The notes beneath the pieces were generated by a model. It ran no database searches, had not been told where the DNA came from, and saw nothing but the letters and a program-made list of their open reading frames with translations. The position numbers and the translations under genes are program-made. Positions 2,559-12,198 of a stretch of DNA of 30,241 nt are shown here, piece by piece. The stretch is taken from the NCBI GenBank assembly GCA_937883785.1, contig CALGDE010000005.1, positions 1 to 30,241 on the forward strand, in the 5' to 3' direction. How positions within the stretch are numbered: the first letter of the stretch is position 1; every line of letters starts with the position of its first letter. The DNA comes from an uncultured cyanobacterium (lineage in GTDB: Bacteria; Cyanobacteriota; Cyanobacteriia; CACIAM-69d).

Positions 2559-3575
2559 TTATCGGTTGCCATAGGGAGGGCGCCCGTTATTTCTCTGGTT
2601 TTTGCTGGACTTTTCCGGTGGACGTTTTTCGTCGTGTTTTTCATAAGCCGCCACAATTCTCTGCACCAGGGGATGGCGCACCACATCCGATTTAGTGAGA
2701 TTGCAAAAGGCGATGCCGTCGGTGCCGTCCAGGATTTTCTGGGCGATCGCCATTCCTGACTGTTGATAACTGGGTAAATCCGTCTGGGTGATATCCCCTG
2801 TTACCACCATGCGCGACTGCCACCCCAAGCGAGTCAACACCATTTTCATTTGAGCCGGCGTGGTATTTTGCGCCTCATCCAAAATCACAAAAGACCGGTT
2901 TAACGTGCGTCCACGCATATAGGCGAGGGGCGCGATCTCGATAATTCCCCGCTCCATCAGACTATTTACTTTTTCTGGATCCACCATTTCGTGGAGAGCG
3001 TCGTACAGTGGGCGCAAATAAGGATCGACTTTTTGCTGCAAATCCCCTGGCAAAAAGCCTAGCCGCTCTCCCGCTTCCACTGCCGGGCGAGTCAAGATAA
3101 GCCGCTCAAATTCACCAGCCAGCAGTGCTTTTAGGGCTAGGATCGCGGCTAAGAACGTTTTTCCCGTTCCTGCCGGTCCAACGCAAAAGATCAGGTCTTG
3201 TTTACGCAGCGCTTGAATATACTGACGCTGGCGAAAAGTCTTGGCGCGAATGACCTCTCCTCGGCGAGTGGTGGCGATCGCGTCCGTTTGAATCGATTGC
3301 AGCTCCGCCTGCCGCTGGGTATCTAGGGCATGGCGGGCGGTCAGAATATCAGCACCATCAACGCGCTGACCTTTGGACCAGTAAGGCTCTAGCGATCGCA
3401 CCAAAGTCTCGCATTGGACCACCTGTTTATCCTGACCGGAAATGCAAACCTGCTGCCCCCGTAGCACCACCGTGGTGCCCGTCAAGCGAGCCAACTGTTT
3501 TAAATTTTCCTCGCGATAGCCTGCCAACGCCACAGCGCTTTCGGGGGTTGGCAATTCCAAATTAAAATTTGCCAA
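2559..3575 (-). CDS. phoH: PhoH-like ATPase (PhoH/YbeZ family)
   Basis: Walker A motif VGPAGTGKTFLA and a PhoH-family C-terminal domain. The ORF begins with TTG at 3573-3575 and there is no upstream in-frame ATG. Confidence 0.88.
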   Translation of the reverse strand: MANFNLELPTPESAVALAGYREENLKQLARLTGTTVVLRGQQVCISGQDKQVVQCETLVRSLEPYWSKGQRVDGADILTARHALDTQRQAELQSIQTDAIATTRRGEVIRAKTFRQRQYIQALRKQDLIFCVGPAGTGKTFLAAILALKALLAGEFERLILTRPAVEAGERLGFLPGDLQQKVDPYLRPLYDALHEMVDPEKVNSLMERGIIEIAPLAYMRGRTLNRSFVILDEAQNTTPAQMKMVLTRLGWQSRMVVTGDITQTDLPSYQQSGMAIAQKILDGTDGIAFCNLTKSDVVRHPLVQRIVAAYEKHDEKRPPEKSSKNQRNNGRPPYGNR

Positions 3576-4568: not shown

Positions 4569-6119
4569 CTACTGTGAGTCCTGTAGGCTAACCAAATCTG
4601 ACAGCAGGTTATTCAAGCTGCCGCGCACTTCAATGCCGTTCACCTTCTCAGCGATGCGCTCTAGCACTTCCATTTCTTTAAGGCGCATGGCCATGGGGTT
4701 GTTTTCCATGACTCGCGCTGTGTTCAACATACTGCGGGTGGCGGCGGTTTCTTCTCGACGGCGGATTACGTTGGCTTGGGCGGATTTTTCCGCTTCCACC
4801 ACCTGGGCCAAAATGGTTTTCATTTCGCCGGGCAGAATGATGTCCTTGACCCCCACTGAGGCGATCGCCACGCCATATTCCTCGGCTTTGGGCTGAATGT
4901 ACTGCAACACTTCCCCATCGATCGCCCCTTTGTCCTCCAGCAATTCATCGAGGGTCTTGGTGCCGATCGCCCCGCGTAACGCAAACTGTAGCTCTTTGTA
5001 GAGATACTCCTGCACGTTTTTCAAGGACGACAGCGCCAAATTGGGATCGGTAATGCGATAGCCAGTGGTGAGGTTTAGGCGCAGAGCCACCTTATCCTTA
5101 GTCAGGATTTCTTGCCCCGACACCTCCAAAACTTGCAGACGTAGGTCAACAACCTCGGTCTTCATAGAGCGTCCCACGGACCACCAGCTATGCCAGCCGG
5201 GCTCGAGAGTCTCCGCTAAGGTGCCCGATTCGTAAAACAAACCTACGTGTTGTGGCGCCACTTCGATCGCCGTCACCAAAGACATTGCCATGCGTTTTAC
5301 GGGGTCGCGTCCCAGAATTAATTCCTTGATTTGGCGATCCGTTAGCTGGGGCTGGTCTTGGGTGTTAATCGCCTCAATGGTCACCCCTTTCCAAAACAGT
5401 CGACGGCTTCCCGGCGGCAGAATATCAATCACGTTGCCCTGGTCGCGCACGATCGCAATTTCCGTTTCGGACAGGGTGGCGATTTCGCAATATTCTTCGA
5501 CAAATTCGGGATGATTGTCGATCAAATTTTCCGTATCTTTGACGGTCAAAATCCCCCCTAGACGGCGACTACGCTGCATATGCAACTCTTGGTTAACGTT
5601 CCAGAATGCATATCTGCCTGGGGTAAGCAATTGTAAAAAATTGCCGTCACGGTAAAGCAATTCCACTTCATCTTCCTGTACGTTGACAAACTGGATAGCG
5701 GGACTTAGCCCTTGACGATGCTGAATTTGAGATACCAGGTTGGTCGAGATTTCTAGGGTGTCGTCCAGGTTAAACCGATGCACCGTAACCGGGTTGGCTC
5801 GATTCCACCCGCGCCAGAATGCCGCCGTTTCGTCCCGCTCCACTACGTACCACTGCAACGGCGTCTTCACCAATGCCGCTTCGTTGTAGCCCGTGCGCAC
5901 AATTTCGCAGTGTTCGGAAAAGGCGTCTCCATGCTCTTGGAGCAAAAACTCCAGGTTGCGCAGGGTTAGCCGCGATTCCTGCACATCAAAAACCTGCACG
6001 TTCCAGCGGCGACCAATGAAGCGGTGGATTCCGGGGTTCAAAATCTGCTTGAAGTCACTGCGGCGGAAGAGCAAACCGCGCTCAGTGGGCTTGATGTAAA
6101 AGGTTTTGAAGAAGAACAT
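4569..6119 (-). CDS. SPFH/band-7 (stomatin/prohibitin-like) protein with a long N-terminal region of four degenerate internal repeats
   Basis: The C-terminal 250 aa is a clear SPFH domain (VVDLRLQVLEV...LRGAIGTKTLDELLEDKGAIDGEVLQYIQPKAEEYGVAIASVGVKDIILPGEM...). The track ORF begins at 6200 with TTG. I prefer the in-frame ATG at 6117-6119 (MFFFKTFYIK), which also avoids overlap with the non-coding repeat array. Confidence 0.8.
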   Translation of the reverse strand: MFFFKTFYIKPTERGLLFRRSDFKQILNPGIHRFIGRRWNVQVFDVQESRLTLRNLEFLLQEHGDAFSEHCEIVRTGYNEAALVKTPLQWYVVERDETAAFWRGWNRANPVTVHRFNLDDTLEISTNLVSQIQHRQGLSPAIQFVNVQEDEVELLYRDGNFLQLLTPGRYAFWNVNQELHMQRSRRLGGILTVKDTENLIDNHPEFVEEYCEIATLSETEIAIVRDQGNVIDILPPGSRRLFWKGVTIEAINTQDQPQLTDRQIKELILGRDPVKRMAMSLVTAIEVAPQHVGLFYESGTLAETLEPGWHSWWSVGRSMKTEVVDLRLQVLEVSGQEILTKDKVALRLNLTTGYRITDPNLALSSLKNVQEYLYKELQFALRGAIGTKTLDELLEDKGAIDGEVLQYIQPKAEEYGVAIASVGVKDIILPGEMKTILAQVVEAEKSAQANVIRRREETAATRSMLNTARVMENNPMAMRLKEMEVLERIAEKVNGIEVRGSLNNLLSDLVSLQDSQ

Positions 6120-6424
6120 GGGAGCAGGAGTCAACAAAAAAATTTTGAAAGGGATGAAGCGATCGCCCCAAACGGAGCCGCAACGGGCGATCACGGTCAA
6201 AGCTCAGGAGAACGGCTGTTTCGCCCGGTAAGCCATAGCAAGCTACGGACAAACCAAAGCTGAAAGAGACCGACTTGTAAACAATGACGGGCTAATCGCG
6301 CGGGTCACTTTTCCGATGCCTACCGCTTCCATTTCCGCCGTTTAACATTGCCGCTCCCGTAGGTTTGGCATTGCTATTCCATTGGATTTGGTGGCGGGTG
6401 GCTCGAGGCGATCGCTCCAGTCCC

Positions 6425-6520
6425 AAAAAACGCGGAGTCGAACCGCAACGCATTTCTGCGTTTTGCCATAGCTCGTTCCGAAGACGAGTGACTTTCCAGT
6501 AGAAAGTCGGGTTAAACCTT
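6425..6520 (-). other. tRNA-like 3' part in module A: hairpin, anticodon-like arm (loop CUUCGGA, anticodon UCG), long variable arm, T-arm GCGG-TTCGACT-CCGC, then a U-run
   Basis: The minus strand reads ...CTCGT CTTCGGA ACGAG CTATGGCAAAACGCAGAAATGCGTT GCGGTTCGACTCCGC GTTTTTTGGG. It has C32, U33 and a purine at 37 like a real anticodon loop. I could not find a pairing 5' acceptor strand. Confidence 0.4.
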
Positions 6521-6535
6521 TTCAGGGTTTGGGGT

Positions 6536-6609
6536 TTAAAAGTGTAGGACTCGAACCTACTACCAATAGATTAAGAATCTATCGCTCTACCAAATGAGCT
6601 AACTTTTGG
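6536..6609 (-). tRNA. tRNA-Lys(CUU)-like gene, module A position 1
   Basis: The minus strand folds with canonical numbering: CAAAAGT TA GCTC-ATTTGGTA-GAGC G ATAGA-TTCTTAA-TCTAT TGGTA GTAGG-TTCGAGT-CCTAC ACTTTTA A. The D-arm and variable loop resemble bacterial tRNA-Lys. The acceptor stem is A/U-rich with a C1:A72 mismatch and CCA is not encoded. Confidence 0.5.
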
Positions 6610-6613
6610 GTTG

Positions 6614-6684
6614 TGGCGGCCAATACGGGAGTCGAACCCGTGTTTCTCGGGCAAAGCCCAGGTGGAACCATTCCACAAAAGAGA
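6614..6684 (-). pseudogene. Defective tRNA-like gene, module A position 2
   Basis: It ends ...ACGGG-TTCGACT-CCCGT ATTGGCC G CCA (T-arm, 3' acceptor strand, encoded CCA). The 5' part (TCTCTTT TG TGGAATGGTTCCACC...) does not pair with the 3' acceptor strand and no anticodon arm is recognisable. Confidence 0.35.
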
Positions 6685-7159
6685 CAGCGCAAACCCTTGG
6701 CATACGCAGGCGCACACAGTGCCGCGCACCGAGTAGGCATACGGAACCAACTCGCAAAGGGTTGTATGACTCTCCCTTCAAACCGTTTAGATCAGCCATG
6801 GCTGTCAATATTCTAAGCTCGGTTTTTGTGAGAGGCGCTGGTTTAAAAATTCTGTTATTTCCCGATGGTCAGTAGGGAGTAGGGATGGAGCGATCGCCCC
6901 AAACGGAGCCATAACGGGCGATCGCGGTCAAAGCTCAGGAGTGCGGCTGTTTCGCCCGGTAAGCCACAGCCAAGCTACGGACAAACCAAAGCTGAAAGAG
7001 ACCGACTCGTAAACAATGACGGGGCGATCGCACGGGTCACTTTTCCGTTGCCCCCGTCCCGTCCCCGCCGGTCCAGCATTACCGCTCCCGTAGGATTGGC
7101 GCTGCTATTCCTTTGGATTTGGTAACGGTGGGCTCGGGGCGATCGCTCCAGTCCCAAAA

Positions 7160-7237
7160 AATGCGGAGTCGAACCGCAACGCATTTCTGCGTTTTGCCAA
7201 TAGCTTGCGTGACAGGCAAGTGCCACCGAAGTGACGT
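7160..7237 (-). other. tRNA-like 3' part in module B: anticodon-like arm CTTGC-CUGUCAC-GCAAG (anticodon GUC), long variable arm, T-arm, U-run
   Basis: Same architecture as in modules A and C, but the anticodon-like stem-loop has a different sequence with compensatory stem changes, and a different upstream hairpin (GTCAC-TTCG-GTGGC). Confidence 0.4.
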
Positions 7238-7324
7238 TGGTTAAAAGACAGGACTTGAACCTGCACGGGCTTTACGCCCAATAGAACCTGAATCTATCGC
7301 CTCTACCAATTTGGCTACTTTTGT
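7238..7324 (-). tRNA. Type-II tRNA-Leu(CAG)-like gene, module B position 1
   Basis: The minus strand reads ACAAAAG TA GCC-AAATTGGTAGA-GGC G ATAGA-TTCAGGT-TCTAT TGGGCGTAAAGCCCGT (long variable arm) GCAGG-TTCAAGT-CCTGT CTTTTAA... The D-arm, anticodon loop and variable arm resemble bacterial tRNA-Leu(CAG). The acceptor stem is irregular, with mismatches at its base. Confidence 0.45.
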
Positions 7325-7400
7325 TGGTTCTCGATGCAGGAGTCGAACCTGCGTCAACTGGCAACTTAAGCCAGCGCGTCACCCGCTGCGCCAATCGAGA
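7325..7400 (-). tRNA. Canonical 76-nt class-I tRNA with anticodon AAG (unusual), a Pro-like D-arm, A73 and encoded CCA, module B position 2
   Basis: Minus strand: TCTCGAT TG GCGC-AGCGGGTGA-CGCG C CTGGC-TTAAGTT-GCCAG TTGAC GCAGG-TTCGACT-CCTGC ATCGAGA A CCA. The acceptor stem is a perfect 7 bp, the T-loop is TTCGACT, and it directly abuts B1 with a 0-1 nt spacer. Confidence 0.55.
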
Positions 7401-7807
7401 GATGTGAACACTTGGAATACGCAGGGGCAATGGATAGCGCCGCGCACCGACCGAGCATACAGAACCCAAGTCATAAAATGCTGCACGGTCACTATTCTAA
7501 GGATTTAAATGGTGGCGTAAAAATTTTGAGAGGGATGGAGCGATCGCCCCAAACGGAGCCGCAACGGGCGATCGCGGTCAAAGCTCAGGAGTACGGCTGT
7601 TTCGCCCGGTAAGCCACAGCCAAGCTACGGACAAATCAAAGCTGAAAGAGACCGACTCGTAAACAATGACGGGGCGATCGCGCGGGTCACTTTTCCGTTG
7701 CCTGCCGCCGCCATACTCGCCGGTCTAGCATTGCCACCCCCGAAGGATTGGCGCTGCTATCCCTTTGGATTTGGTGACGGTGGGCTCGGGGCGATCGCTC
7801 CAGTCCC

Positions 7808-7895
7808 AAAAAATGCGGAGTCGAACCGCAACGCATTTCTGCGTTTTGCCAGGGTCTCGTTTAAAAGACGAGTCAAACCTTTTCAGGGTTTGGGT
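7808..7895 (-). other. tRNA-like 3' part in module C: anticodon-like arm CTCGT-CUUUUAA-ACGAG (anticodon UUU), long variable arm, T-arm, U-run
   Basis: Same architecture as modules A and B. The upstream hairpin AAACC-CTGAAAA-GGTTT is shared with module A. Confidence 0.4.
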
Positions 7896-7970
7896 TGGTT
7901 AAAAGCGCAGGAATCGAACCTGCGAATGACAGAACCAAAATCTGTTGCCTTACCGCTTGGCTAGCTTTTG
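7896..7970 (-). tRNA. tRNA-Gln(UUG)-like gene with A73 and encoded CCA, module C position 1
   Basis: Minus strand: CAAAAGC TA GCC-AAGCGGTAA-GGC A ACAGA-TTTTGGT-TCTGT CATTC GCAGG-TTCGATT-CCTGC GCTTTTA A CCA. The D-arm and variable loop match those of bacterial tRNA-Gln as I remember them. The acceptor stem is A/U-rich with a C1:A72 mismatch. Confidence 0.55.
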
Positions 7971-7972
7971 GG

Positions 7973-8043
7973 ATCTCGATACGGGAATCGAACCCGTGAA
8001 TGCTGGATCCTTCACCAGTGCCTTACCGCTTGGCTAATCGAGA
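7973..8043 (-). pseudogene. Defective tRNA-like gene (4-bp anticodon stem with 8-nt loop), module C position 2
   Basis: Minus strand: TCTCGAT TA GCC-AAGCGGTAA-GGC A CTGG-TGAAGGAT-CCAG CATTC ACGGG-TTCGATT-CCCGT ATCGAGA T. The acceptor stem is the same as B2 and the D-arm and variable loop are Gln-like, but the anticodon arm is aberrant and there is no CCA. Confidence 0.35.
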
Positions 8044-8155
8044 AATGCAAACACTTGGAATACGCAGGAGCAATGGATAGCGCCGCGCACCGACCGGGCA
8101 CACAGAACCCAAGTCAAAAATGCTGCACGCCGATTATTCTAACGAGGACATTTCC

Positions 8156-8566
8156 TCAGTTGTTCTCCTCTGGCGCTGGCACTTCTTCCGCGCGGTAGAA
8201 CACAAACTGAGTTGCGACACCGAGGCTTTCCACCTCATAGCTCGGCAGCTGCCCCGACAAAAAATCTGGCAATAGCGAGCTCGCCGTTAGCGTGGTTTTG
8301 TAATGGCTTACCACGCCTAAATTGGTCCGCTCAGTACCCGACTCAATCAGCCCCTTAAGCTGGGGTCTCAACTCCGCCACCACATTGCGACACTGCTCCT
8401 GAAGGTTAATTCCGAAGGTATTGGATAACTCAGAGCACGTTTCCGTCTGCAACTTCTCCACTAACTTGTGGCTCGCCTCCTCCGCGTAGGCTTCCGGCGA
8501 TGGATTCGTTAGTGCCAACCCCCCGCCCACTGCCACCAACGCCACCAAGCCAGCAATCAATTTCAT
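8156..8566 (-). CDS. Small secreted or membrane-anchored hypothetical protein (possibly the cyanobacterial DUF4359 family)
   Basis: N-terminal hydrophobic signal (MKLIAGLVALVAVGGGLALT). The track ORF starts with TTG at 8569; the ATG at 8564-8566 is preferred. Confidence 0.55.
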   Translation of the reverse strand: MKLIAGLVALVAVGGGLALTNPSPEAYAEEASHKLVEKLQTETCSELSNTFGINLQEQCRNVVAELRPQLKGLIESGTERTNLGVVSHYKTTLTASSLLPDFLSGQLPSYEVESLGVATQFVFYRAEEVPAPEENN

Positions 8567-8817
8567 CAATCACTCCCCAAAAATTGTCACAACATTACAA
8601 TCCCTGCATTTCTAATCTATCCAACTCAATGACCCCGGCTTTTTTTCGCAACTTAATGGGATTGATGTTGGGCGATCGTGTTACCCTAGTTCGGCTAATT
8701 CACAAATCGCACACCCAAGATTTCGGGTTTAGGCAGTGGCATTCGGGACTTTTTTACCCACGCTACAACGCTAAAAACAACTTGGGTGGAGGCTAAAACC
8801 CGAAAAGGAGAAAAATA

Positions 8818-10566: not shown

Positions 10567-12198
10567 ATGGCTGACTCCATTCTTAATTTAAAAAATAAGT
10601 TGCGGGGATTATCAGTTGAAACCCAGGCGATCGCCCAGAAATTACACAGCGCTGACCGTCACTACTTAGCCCTATTGGGAAAAACCGCCCGGCAGCAATT
10701 GATCCTAGCTTGCTATCAGGTCTGTACAACGCAATACCCTGAAGAGTTCTTGGATCTAACTCCAGAACAAAAGCAAACCCTACAAAACAAAGTAAAAGCG
10801 TTAGGACTTGAGTTGCAGCAAAATCTATTGGGGGTTTTGGACTCGGCCTTGGACAAACAGCCAAAAAATCCCGACTCCTTTCAAGAATTTATAATCAGCA
10901 GCTTATTTTCCAACGCCAAAATTTCCCGGAAGCGCCGTAGGAACAGAAAAGGTAAGGCTAAGAAAGGCAGTGATTTTGATGGTGGCGACTTCGATGGCGA
11001 TAGCGACTTAGGCGAAAATAATAGAACCTTAGTCGTTTTAAGCGACGAAATTGCCTCAGAAGAACTGTCGGAAACGGGACTGTCTCCGGAGCGTCTAGCG
11101 GAAGCGCTAGCCAATGCCCTTGAGTCGGTTATGGGCGAAGATTCAGATGAAGATGGCAGCGATGAAAGTAAAAAAGATAATGATCCTAAAGGCTTAAATG
11201 ACGAAGAAGGTGAGGAGAAAAGAAACGAAAATAATGAAGATATCGAAGCAGAAAATATTGACGAAAACTTCGAGGAAGGTCCGGTAAAAGTTGGCGCCCT
11301 AGATGAATTTATAGCGGAAGAAAAAAACGTTTCATCAGAGGATTTTACGGACGAAATCTACGATCGCGACGACGAAGTTAATTCAGAGGGTGATCAGCAA
11401 GATTTAGAGACTCTGGAATCGGAGCAAGAGTTGGGGGATTTGGAGAAGGATCGTGAAGGAAGTGAGGAGACTGAGGGCGATCGCGATGCCAATCAGGACC
11501 CGGACAATACCTCCTCCAGCAGCGACGTTAGTAGCAGCTTTCTAGGGGAATATTTTGCAGAAAAGGGTCCCGAAGGAAATGCTGGGGACGAGAAAAACGG
11601 TGCCGATGGGAATGAAGTCGCCTCGATTGCCAGCAAGAATCAACCCTTGGTTATTCAGCCGAAATCAGAAAGTACTGGATTAAGCACCTTGGGGCTGGCA
11701 AGCTTAAGTTCATCGTTGCCGGACACTCCGCCGGTGGACATTACCAAAAGTGAAGTACCTTTTGACGTTATCCAGTGGCAGCGATCGTGGGAGCGTTTAG
11801 TGTTGTCCAGCCTGCAAAAAACCTCTTACCGTACCAACCGGCTTCTAAGGACCAGCAAGGCCATTCCCGAGCCCCTCGCCAATCCATTTATTGAAGGCGA
11901 CCTCTCCCTCAGCCGCGAGTCGTCTTCAAAAACTCCAAACTTACTCGCCCTAACCATTGAGCCCACGAAAGCCCCTCCCTTTGGCGATCGCCCGACTCCG
12001 ATGCGTGTGGTGGCGGTACACCTCAACTTAAGCGACCTGGAGCTGGTTAACCCTGAGTTGCGGCGGCGATCGCTCAAGATTCGCAAACTGTTTAGCCAGT
12101 TAGAGACCTTAAACCAGCAGCATCAGGATATTCAGAAAAAGCTCAATATTGCTCAAGCCGACATGGAATGGCGCAGCAGCTGGTCTGACGATAGCTAA
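10567..12198 (+). CDS. Hypothetical protein with structured N- and C-terminal regions separated by a roughly 250-aa extremely acidic (D/E/S-rich) low-complexity linker
   Basis: 543-aa ORF with an ATG start and no recognisable domain. The linker runs approximately residues 140-390; it is preceded by a basic patch (RKRRRNRKGKAKKG). Confidence 0.6.
   Translation: MADSILNLKNKLRGLSVETQAIAQKLHSADRHYLALLGKTARQQLILACYQVCTTQYPEEFLDLTPEQKQTLQNKVKALGLELQQNLLGVLDSALDKQPKNPDSFQEFIISSLFSNAKISRKRRRNRKGKAKKGSDFDGGDFDGDSDLGENNRTLVVLSDEIASEELSETGLSPERLAEALANALESVMGEDSDEDGSDESKKDNDPKGLNDEEGEEKRNENNEDIEAENIDENFEEGPVKVGALDEFIAEEKNVSSEDFTDEIYDRDDEVNSEGDQQDLETLESEQELGDLEKDREGSEETEGDRDANQDPDNTSSSSDVSSSFLGEYFAEKGPEGNAGDEKNGADGNEVASIASKNQPLVIQPKSESTGLSTLGLASLSSSLPDTPPVDITKSEVPFDVIQWQRSWERLVLSSLQKTSYRTNRLLRTSKAIPEPLANPFIEGDLSLSRESSSKTPNLLALTIEPTKAPPFGDRPTPMRVVAVHLNLSDLELVNPELRRRSLKIRKLFSQLETLNQQHQDIQKKLNIAQADMEWRSSWSDDS

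Follow-up and report, generated by a model that had tools for sequence, protein, structure and literature searches.

We analyzed a 30,241-nt stretch of DNA from an uncultured cyanobacterium (contig CALGDE010000005.1 of assembly GCA_937883785.1; "the window" throughout), and in particular an array of three tandem units, or modules, of ~640-700 nt each that occupies positions 6151-8141 of the minus strand, between a DUF4359 gene and a gene encoding a slipin, i.e., a membrane-scaffold protein with an SPFH/Band_7 domain. In the order of transcription these are unit C (~8141-7532), unit B (7499-6882) and unit A (6815-6151), and each is made up, from 5′ to 3′, of a -10 box, a two-hairpin leader (~85 nt in B and C, ~120 nt in A), two abutting tRNA-shaped genes (position 2 and then position 1), a spacer in which a third tRNA persists only as remnants, and a core of ~275 nt. 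The spacer contains two to three hairpins followed by a T-arm hairpin and a run of six U residues (U6), and a terminator scan flagged the T-arm/U6 combination in all three units. The features of the locus, with the basis for each call where there is one, are as follows:

8156-8569, minus strand: DUF4359 gene, the upstream flank, on the same strand as the array (Pfam)
8136-8141, minus strand: module C, -10-like box TAGAAT (sequence reading)
8044-8128, minus strand: module C, leader with two hairpins, hp1 with the 7-nt loop UCUGUGU and hp2 formed by GUGCGCGG/CUGCGUAU (alifold)
7971-8043, minus strand: module C, position 2, 8-nt anticodon loop, acceptor UCUCGAU/AUCGAGA (ARAGORN, "anticodon aagg"; RF00005, 49.3 bits)
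7896-7970, minus strand: module C, position 1, Gln-UUG, C1xA72, acceptor AAAAG/CUUUU, encoded CCA (ARAGORN; RF00005, 58.3 bits)
7808-7895, minus strand: module C, spacer with hairpins a, b and c and the T-arm hairpin (7814-7830), then U6 (terminator scan, folds)
7532-7807, minus strand: module C, core, a closed multi-helix RNA domain of ~275 nt with 4 HIP1 sites (fold, consensus structure)
7494-7499, minus strand: module B, -10 box TAGAAT, with a -35 box TTTACG at 16-nt spacing (promoter scan)
7401-7486, minus strand: module B, leader (alignment, alifold)
7325-7400, minus strand: module B, position 2, anticodon AAG (Leu), U37, short variable loop (ARAGORN; RF00005, 50.5 bits)
7239-7324, minus strand: module B, position 1, type-II, Leu-CAG, 6-bp acceptor, C1xA72, encoded CCA (ARAGORN; RF00005, 40.2 bits)
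7156-7238, minus strand: module B, spacer, with T-arm and U6 at 7162-7178 (terminator scan, folds)
6882-7155, minus strand: module B, core RNA domain (alignment, consensus structure)
6810-6815, minus strand: module A, -10 box TAGAAT (sequence reading)
6685-6803, minus strand: module A, leader of the longer A type, two hairpins as in B and C (alifold; 95% identical to module 2 of the relative L011)
6611-6684, minus strand: module A, position 2, degenerate, T-arm intact, D-arm and acceptor rearranged (RF00005, 21.9 bits over 6617-6685)
6536-6608, minus strand: module A, position 1, Lys-CUU, C1xA72 (ARAGORN; RF00005, 65.6 bits)
6425-6535, minus strand: module A, spacer, with T-arm and U6 at 6431-6447 (terminator scan, folds)
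6151-6424, minus strand: module A, core RNA domain, 31 nt of sequence separating its end from the slipin ATG (6119)
4569-6119, minus strand: slipin (SPFH/Band_7) gene, 516 aa (Pfam Band_7, 9.7e-34)

An initial annotation, made from the letters alone, had described a tandem three-module array between an SPFH gene and a DUF4359 gene, and both points are borne out, the first by ARAGORN, by the Rfam tRNA family RF00005 and by a MAFFT alignment of the modules, the second by Pfam, with everything on one strand. The five tRNAs that it named and its one defective body were also recovered, five by ARAGORN and all six by RF00005. The alignment further demonstrated unrelated tRNA bodies between similar flanks, with identity returning within the acceptor stems, and near-identical leader, spacer and core sequences; blastn of the modules against one another gave identities of 83% over 635 nt (C versus B), 77% over 626 nt (C versus A) and 89% over 327 nt (the B and A cores), and the cores of the three modules taken alone are 87-92% identical. 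The core, initially put at ~400 bp, is corrected to ~275 nt (7532-7807, 6882-7155 and 6151-6424), and what had been called a tRNA-like 3′ part is the T-arm hairpin plus U6 of what looks like a degenerate third tRNA. Hairpin b of the module C spacer resembles an anticodon arm (CUCGU-CUUUUAA-ACGAG), and this spacer as a whole looks like a third, degenerate tRNA together with a terminator-like site. Of the shared acceptor halves, CAAAAG/CUUUUA is present at position 1 of all three modules, each with the C1xA72 mismatch, and UCUCGAU/AUCGAGA at position 2 of B and C; position 2 of A has lost this stem.

A TAGAAT, TAGGAT or TAAGAT hexamer precedes the leader in most modules of the window and its relatives, with weaker matches in three cases (L009_1, L019 and L020; locus numbers are introduced below), and a promoter scan found no promoter-like site in the 31-nt gap between the last core and the slipin ATG. 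At the other end of the array, a hairpin, GAGGAAAUGUCCUC on the minus strand at 8144-8157, lies after the DUF4359 stop codon and in the -35 region of module C, and may be a weak terminator dividing DUF4359 from the array. The HIP1 octamer (GCGATCGC) occurs 43 times in the window, where 0.6 sites are expected by chance, and 10 of these sites fall in the 2-kb array, a density ~3.5 times higher than across the window.

Loci in relatives, designated by L numbers, were reached by following slipin orthologues into their contigs. Using this approach we identified one to three units immediately 5′ of the slipin orthologue in the window and L001, L011, L002, L009, L003-L008, L019, L024, L020 and L023. 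Spirulina sp. SIO3F2 and Calothrix sp. NIES-2100 are among the cyanobacterial lineages, at least nine in number, that carry the unit. The loci compare as follows:

L002: slipin 87% identical to that of the window; one unit; upstream neighbor DUF4359
L011: a close relative; two units; upstream DUF4359-like open reading frame (ORF), so named by position and size
L009: two units; upstream 590-aa ORF
L003-L008: slipin 67% identical; two units; upstream carB and two small ORFs
L019: slipin 60% identical; one unit; upstream methyltransferase
L024: slipin 58% identical; two units; upstream HemolysinCabind-domain protein
L020: slipin 56% identical; one unit; upstream metallophosphatase
L023, Spirulina sp. 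SIO3F2: slipin 56% identical; one unit

Since the upstream neighbor varies by lineage and the slipin is constant, the conserved partner of the array is the slipin, not DUF4359. The possibility that relatives would lack the array, raised by the initial annotation, is not what we find, as the array is present there in one to three copies; the related suggestion of an ordinary tRNA operon conserved in relatives holds in that the locus is conserved, but not in that it is an ordinary tRNA operon. In addition, a search with a profile of the leader identified a reduced version in Calothrix sp. NIES-2100 (~1,538,860-1,539,160 of AP018178.1; L022, 2717-3020), which comprises a leader, position 2, a position 1 whose T-loop has acquired two additional hairpins, and an anticodon-arm-like hairpin, and which lies 1.1 kb upstream of the slipin gene with an OmdA/DUF8412 gene intervening. 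Downstream of this element, a motif, TTGTAGTATATGTATTA (3310-3350), matches the promoter region 5′ of the L020 leader.

A scan of 185,579 species representatives with a leader pattern returned three genomes with a single locus each; the pattern scans demanded 21-23 exact bases and missed Calothrix, and the element is thus older and more widespread than exact-pattern scans implied. Leader-pattern matches in metagenomes beyond L002 (L012 and L014-L017) share only the pattern, without module tRNAs, and were rejected as chance matches; one of them, L016, has a single unrelated tRNA-Gly ~300 nt downstream of the match. We found no further copies in the window or in the fetched loci of relatives, the leader-pattern scan of viral contigs gave 0 matches, and blastn of the module against plasmid and phage collections returned generic tRNA-Leu similarity of ~60 nt only.

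Several neighboring genes were also recorded. In the L003-L008 lineage, two paralogous ORFs of 82 and 71 aa (L003, 6047-6295 and 6473-6688) lie just upstream of the modules; both end in ...RGWL... and have no Pfam match. Genes of toxin-antitoxin type lie directly downstream of the slipin gene in three relatives, namely a PIN gene in L002 (10036-10371), SocA/Panacea and HicB-like genes in L020 (6632-8295) and HigB in L023 (4629-5310), and none are present as neighbors in the window. Some PIN toxins cleave tRNAs, and these genes could bear on the tRNA-like RNAs or be a coincidence. Elsewhere in the window, neither Pfam nor PADLOC gave a match to a 543-aa ORF downstream of tsf (10567-12198, plus strand), which is kept beside tsf in L002 as an ORF of 553 aa.

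Comparison of the tRNA pairs across these loci demonstrated that they fall into three types, which are old paralogues recurring as orthologues across genomes. Type A, a defective body followed by a Lys-like one, is present in the window, L011, L009 and L003, with A-like position-1 bodies also in the single unit of L019 and in module 1 of L024. Type B, a short Leu-like body followed by a type-II Leu-like one, is present in the window, L009 and L003, with B-like position-1 bodies in module 2 of L024, in L020 and in L023 (the last without the long variable arm). Type C, with an 8-nt loop at position 2 and a Gln-like position 1, is present in the window, L011 and L002. The two genes of module C in the window (7971-8043 and 7896-7970) are themselves paralogous, with an identical D-arm (UAGCCAAGCGGUAAGGCA) and 78% identity over 54 nt, and this likeness indicates that the pair arose from tandem duplication of one Gln-like gene.

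The cores, by contrast with the tRNA bodies, cluster by genome and not by module type. All cores of the window and L011 are 84-92% identical to one another, as are the two L009 cores (84%), and the cores of the window and L009 are only 55-61% identical, though both genomes carry B and A pairs. Recombination or gene conversion therefore homogenizes the framework, and we show that the core is homogenized within each genome, i.e., that it undergoes concerted evolution, presumably by unequal crossover. Module 1 of L011 is a chimera, in which a C-type leader and tRNAs are joined to a B-type core and tail, and this is the expected leftover of an unequal crossover between units. Leaders of types B and C are 88-93% identical between genomes, making the leader the most sequence-conserved part of the unit.

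These observations bear directly on the proposal, made in the initial annotation, that the array is a cassette-exchange or gene-conversion system, or a mobile tRNA array, which exchanges unrelated tRNA bodies while the flanks stay conserved. Near-identical flanks around unrelated bodies, breakpoints inside the acceptor stems, and inter-unit recombination, as seen in the L011 chimera and in copy numbers of 1-3, are all in keeping with it, and recombination does homogenize the framework; however, the bodies are not swapped, since the same three body types recur in the same kind of unit across genomes, and this orthology of A, B and C largely refutes the cassette-exchange model. Nor is the array mobile: each genome has one slipin-linked locus, always upstream of the slipin orthologue, there are no copies in viral contigs, plasmids or phages, and no recombinase, integrase or transposase gene is adjacent to the array. 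We therefore regard exchange or mobility of this kind as very improbable.

Our analysis of the regions outside the tRNA bodies identified a conserved RNA structure. The minimum free energy of the unit C core with its upstream spacer (7500-7900) has a z-score of -7.45 against shuffles. A consensus structure built from 10 cores contains 66 pairs in 9 helices, with 93.4% of the cells paired and 21 pairs showing compensatory changes; displacing the 3′ partner by 1-3 columns lowers core pairing to 36-53% and the covarying pairs to 4-11, and 0 of 500 shuffles reached the observed values, a contrast that is somewhat inflated by deriving the structure from the same sequences. The closing helix of the core is a clear example, being HIP1-based in the window (GGAGCGAUCGCCCC/GGGGCGAUCGCUCC) and formed by GGGGUGGUCAUG/CAUGGCCGCUCC in L009, with four positions fully compensated. 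More generally, HIP1 sites pair with one another as core helices in the lineage of the window, and other sequences take their place in the helices of L009 and L003. The frequent G-U pairs in the core indicate that the structure sits on the strand of the tRNA-shaped genes and the slipin gene. An alifold consensus of 11 leaders contains 17 pairs, 5 of them with compensatory changes, and its covariation lies in the lower stem of hp1. In the spacer, the stem of hairpin b changes from CUCGU/ACGAG to CUUGC/GCAAG in unit B of the window and in L011_2, and to CUACC/GGUAG in Calothrix, where the loop CUUUUAA is kept; hairpin b and the T-arm together look like the remains of a third tRNA.

The covariation and the G-U pairs fit an RNA, and they speak against the array being a small-ORF coding region misread as one. 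The cores do hold open frames of 45-120 codons, and one candidate small protein (VTCA..HGRFAF..LLDFDGDRPSWLR) seemed to be conserved in L009 and L003; this frame, the best available, is broken by an in-frame TAG in all copies of the window and L011, by a 1-nt indel between the copies of the window and by a frame break in module 1 of L003, and no conserved ORF was found in the core. An assembly artefact is the other form that such a misreading could take, since mis-assembly of GC-rich repeats can occur, and the initial annotation had named a mis-assembled tandem duplication as a possible cause; independent assemblies agree, however, with L001, a second assembly record of the same organism, holding an identical array, and six independent metagenome contigs of one relative sharing the same two-module version. 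We consider an artefact or a coding region to be extremely improbable.

Other candidate structures were also rejected. A permuted tmRNA formed by the T-arm and the core would be without G3:U70, CCA or an ARAGORN tmRNA call, and ARAGORN found no tmRNA in the window. Pairing of leader and core through CAUUGCC/GGCAAUG shows no covariation in L009, and complementarity of a leader CUUUUG to the CAAAAG acceptor strand is not kept in A-type leaders or in those of L019 and L020. A boxA-like antitermination motif in the leader is a resemblance only.

The tRNA-shaped domains retain their fold. With RF00005, whose Rfam gathering threshold is 29 bits, five of the six elements of the window score 40-66 bits and the sixth 21.9, and those of relatives score 27-65; most elements thus reach the threshold, the exceptions being position 2 of module A in the window (21.9) and position 1 of Calothrix (27.4). 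Orthologues of the degenerate A position 2 score 29.8 bits in L009 and 35 bits in L003, where the cloverleaf is complete. The position-1 cloverleaf, compared across six distinct sequences, is 93.7% paired with 6 covarying pairs, the compensatory changes falling in the D, anticodon and T stems, and B position-1 orthologues in L009 and L003 show further compensatory changes in the variable-arm and T stems. Throughout the six sequences aligned for position 1, acceptor pairs 2-6 (AAAAG/CUUUU) are invariant and 1:72 is CxA, AxG or a U.G wobble; inspection by eye shows an open 1:72 in L020 (CxU) and in module 2 of L024 (CxC) as well, the only exception being a G-C pair in module 1 of L024. One acceptor pair has been dropped jointly from both strands in unit B of the window and in L009. 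The invariance of the acceptor sequence points to a specific protein or RNA partner.

The anticodon and the identity elements are not conserved among orthologues. Anticodons of type C position 1 are UUG (window and L011) and, by a single substitution, GUG (L002); those of type A position 1 are CUU, UUU, GUU and CCU (Lys/Asn/Arg); and those of type B position 1 are CAG, CAU and CCA (Leu/Met/Trp), carried on type-II Leu-like bodies except for the CAG of L023. Bacterial leucyl-tRNA synthetase (LeuRS) does not read the anticodon, so a body that accepts Leu while bearing a Met or Trp anticodon would mistranslate if it were ribosome-bound. At position 2, the anticodon loop is 8 nt long in type C and carries a pyrimidine at position 37 in type B (6 of 6 copies), and in L002 and L020 the two tRNA-shaped genes overlap or abut, with no space for two complete 3′ ends. 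Variable anticodons, open 1:72 pairs and non-canonical position-2 loops thus indicate that most of these RNAs are not decoders, in agreement with the earlier judgement that they are not ordinary housekeeping tRNAs.

Functional supernumerary tRNAs, transcribed together with the slipin gene from a small periodic operon and adding decoding capacity, e.g., under stress, would have precedent, as supernumerary tRNA operons with stress roles are known in cyanobacteria (PMC8421152, PMC10272220). Position-1 genes that reach 40-66 bits with RF00005, and whose anticodon loops are of the canonical 7 nt and carry U33 and a purine 37 (R37), fit such an operon, as do the CCA encoded by several genes, the A73 present in all of them, which is compatible with Lys and Leu identity, and the promoter-like box of each unit. 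Against this, the anticodon shifts on the same body and the identity elements do not follow (the GUG copy of L002, with a His anticodon, is without G-1, and CAU and CCA stand on type-II bodies), 1:72 is open in nearly all copies, the acceptors are A/U-rich, the position-2 loops are non-canonical and the position-1 T-loop of Calothrix is disrupted. Nor would working tRNAs account for the structured core of 275 nt or for the conserved leader, and we consider them unlikely.

C1xA72 keeps initiator tRNA off EF-Tu, and the open 1:72 pair and invariant A/U acceptor, kept while the other stems covary, would also be expected of dedicated non-ribosomal RNAs, i.e., aminoacyl donors that this pair and a weak acceptor stem keep from EF-Tu, or else decoys or back-ups against toxins that attack tRNAs; for the latter, the PIN, HigB, SocA/Panacea and HicB genes just downstream of slipin in L002, L023 and L020 can be cited. 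These toxin-antitoxin neighbors, however, vary by lineage and are not in the window, there is no consistently linked aminoacyl-transferase or tRNA nuclease gene, PADLOC was empty for the flanking proteins, and the position-2 elements are too irregular as substrates of aminoacyl-tRNA synthetases. Such roles appear to us improbable.

The slipin itself belongs to a family of ~510 aa that is widespread and uncharacterized; an exact-protein look-up of the flanking gene matched an annotated 541-aa form, and PADLOC found no defence system among the flanking proteins. Its C-terminal half is stomatin-like (PDB 3bk6, E 4e-25), and its AlphaFold model (predicted local distance difference test score, pLDDT, 83.5) has four N-terminal repeats of ~70 aa, each of five strands and a helix, followed by the SPFH domain and a long helix. 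This modeled layout of beta repeats, SPFH shoulder and long helix resembles a miniature major vault protein. It is conceivable that the unit or its processed core is a stable RNA in a ribonucleoprotein with the slipin, like OLE RNA with OapA or vault RNA with major vault protein. At least one slipin orthologue locus is without the RNA, however, and the slipin has no match to an RNA-binding domain; template modeling scores (TM-scores) against vault proteins are low (0.2-0.3), and the match may stem from the SPFH shoulder and helix alone. We regard a ribonucleoprotein of this kind as decidedly improbable.

The array is best read as a new composite structured RNA or 5′ untranslated region (5′ UTR), in which the tRNA-shaped domains would be structural or processing modules and not decoders, and we hold this reading to be about evenly balanced between right and wrong. 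It builds on the anatomy, conservation, covariation, synteny and concerted evolution demonstrated above, from which we infer a regulatory or partner role towards the slipin. The array would then be a non-coding RNA unit that is inherited vertically, has been amplified in tandem and is tied to the downstream slipin gene. Each unit would be transcribed from its own minus-strand promoter, and its transcript would fold into the leader with its two hairpins, two L-shaped tRNA-like domains set back to back, what is left of a third and the ~275-nt domain; the last unit would run on into the slipin mRNA, with the final core as its 5′ UTR. The tRNA-shaped domains may have been retained for their shape and their invariant A/U-rich acceptor stems, their likeliest role being that of RNase P/RNase Z entry sites and of folding or stability modules, and cleavage would yield a leader RNA, small tRNA-like RNAs and a core RNA (or a core joined to the slipin mRNA). 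The T-arm and U6 could serve as a leaky stop that controls the share of transcription passing on to the core and the gene. Homologous recombination keeps the framework alike within each genome and shifts the copy number between 1 and 3.

Several findings weigh against this composite-RNA reading. Its transcription start sites, its processing and the read-through into the slipin gene are all inferred. In Acaryochloris thomasi (L021), the 180-nt gap upstream of the slipin gene shows nothing of the element, and the protein can thus do without it. The T-arm and U-tract are missing in L003, in module 1 of L011 and in L019, and an attenuator step is thus not universal. The L020/L023 core cannot be aligned to that of the window (44% identity, no nhmmer match), these two loci sharing a different downstream domain that is also structured (two sequences). 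Most position-1 copies have the canonical anticodon loop (7 nt, U33, R37), with L003_1, which has G33, departing from it, and processing alone leaves these canonical loops unexplained, together with the invariant acceptor sequence and the conservation of the leader. A bolder version, in which the RNA products of the unit would work physically with a vault-like slipin in a membrane or cage ribonucleoprotein, or the tRNA-like RNAs would be aminoacyl carriers that evade EF-Tu, is in our view a long shot.

The locus offers an uncatalogued structured RNA, with a leader motif, a 275-nt core, tRNA-shaped domains and covariation over at least nine cyanobacterial lineages; among its carriers, Calothrix sp. 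NIES-2100 is in culture and its genome is complete. If the composite-RNA reading is correct, it also represents a natural case of tRNA folds kept for a non-decoding use, in which fold and acceptor are conserved, 1:72 is open and anticodons drift. It further shows that one part of a repeat can undergo concerted evolution and the paralogues embedded in it still remain distinct. For the slipins of ~510 aa, it would provide a first handle on their regulation or on an RNA partner.

Our comparison with known systems covered Rfam at gathering and at permissive thresholds (E up to 10 in the array region) for the window and ten loci, where only RF00005 passes. No match with E<0.01 to T-box, tmRNA, RNase P RNA, 6S, OLE, GOLLD, ROOL or other Rfam families was found in the array or its relatives, sub-threshold matches to YrlA and Plastid-ycf2 merely overlap the tRNA-shaped parts, and the literature that we searched on tRNA-like elements with SPFH or in cyanobacteria holds no description of this locus. 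Bacterial tRNA arrays, e.g., the trn operon of Anabaena PCC 7120, likewise consist of clustered supernumerary tRNA-type genes on the same strand, and they too can be periodic (accretion arrays) and include some non-canonical members. These comprise A-arrays, which are periodic, and L-arrays, which are horizontally transferred (PMC8421152, PMC10272220). L-arrays have up to 43 tRNA genes at short intergenic distances, are rarely periodic and have a patchy distribution through horizontal transfer (PMC8421152), whereas the present locus has two genes per period and 2-6 in total, is strictly periodic and is syntenic with the slipin gene across lineages. A-arrays are periodic sets of closely spaced tRNA genes that grow by recombination or slippage (PMC8421152); periodicity and growth by recombination are alike here, but ~560-650 nt of conserved leader and structured RNA separate the pairs. 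Unlike tRNA arrays of either kind, this locus has a promoter of its own in each period and is a single, vertically inherited, slipin-linked locus, its anticodons are not conserved, and its A/U-rich acceptor stems are shared.

The thrU-tyrU-glyT-thrT-tufB operon of Escherichia coli is a tRNA-mRNA co-transcription unit, whose tRNAs are canonical and essential. As here, its tRNA-type genes lie upstream of a protein gene on the same strand with no evident intervening promoter, but it is without a conserved leader, a large structured spacer RNA or tandem repeats of the whole unit. In MALAT1-mascRNA and in mitochondrial tRNA punctuation, tRNA-like structures serve as RNase P/Z processing signals, so that non-decoding tRNA shapes likewise mark the ends of neighboring RNAs; this is the mechanism that we propose here, with the differences that those systems are eukaryotic or organellar and that processing at this locus is a proposal only. 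YrlA (RF02553) is also a non-coding RNA with an embedded tRNA-like domain, but its architecture is otherwise different, its matches score 20.8 and 24.6 bits against a gathering score of 69, and no Ro/Rsr (TROVE) gene was found among the ten scanned ORFs of the window, which include both flanking genes, or among the precomputed Pfam matches of called genes in the loci of relatives. OLE RNA, with OapA, is likewise a large structured RNA immediately upstream of a gene for a membrane-associated protein, but it has no sequence or structure match here by Rfam, is without tRNA-like domains and is found in Firmicutes. Bacterial initiator tRNA (C1xA72) shares the unpaired 1:72, but most copies here are without CAU, a run of three G-C pairs in the anticodon stem is absent, and the acceptor sequence differs. 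No known kind that we compared combines this unit architecture, shared acceptors with an open 1:72, a leader and core, and linkage to a slipin gene, and the array is a structured RNA locus, so far in no catalogue, that is assembled from parts derived from tRNAs.

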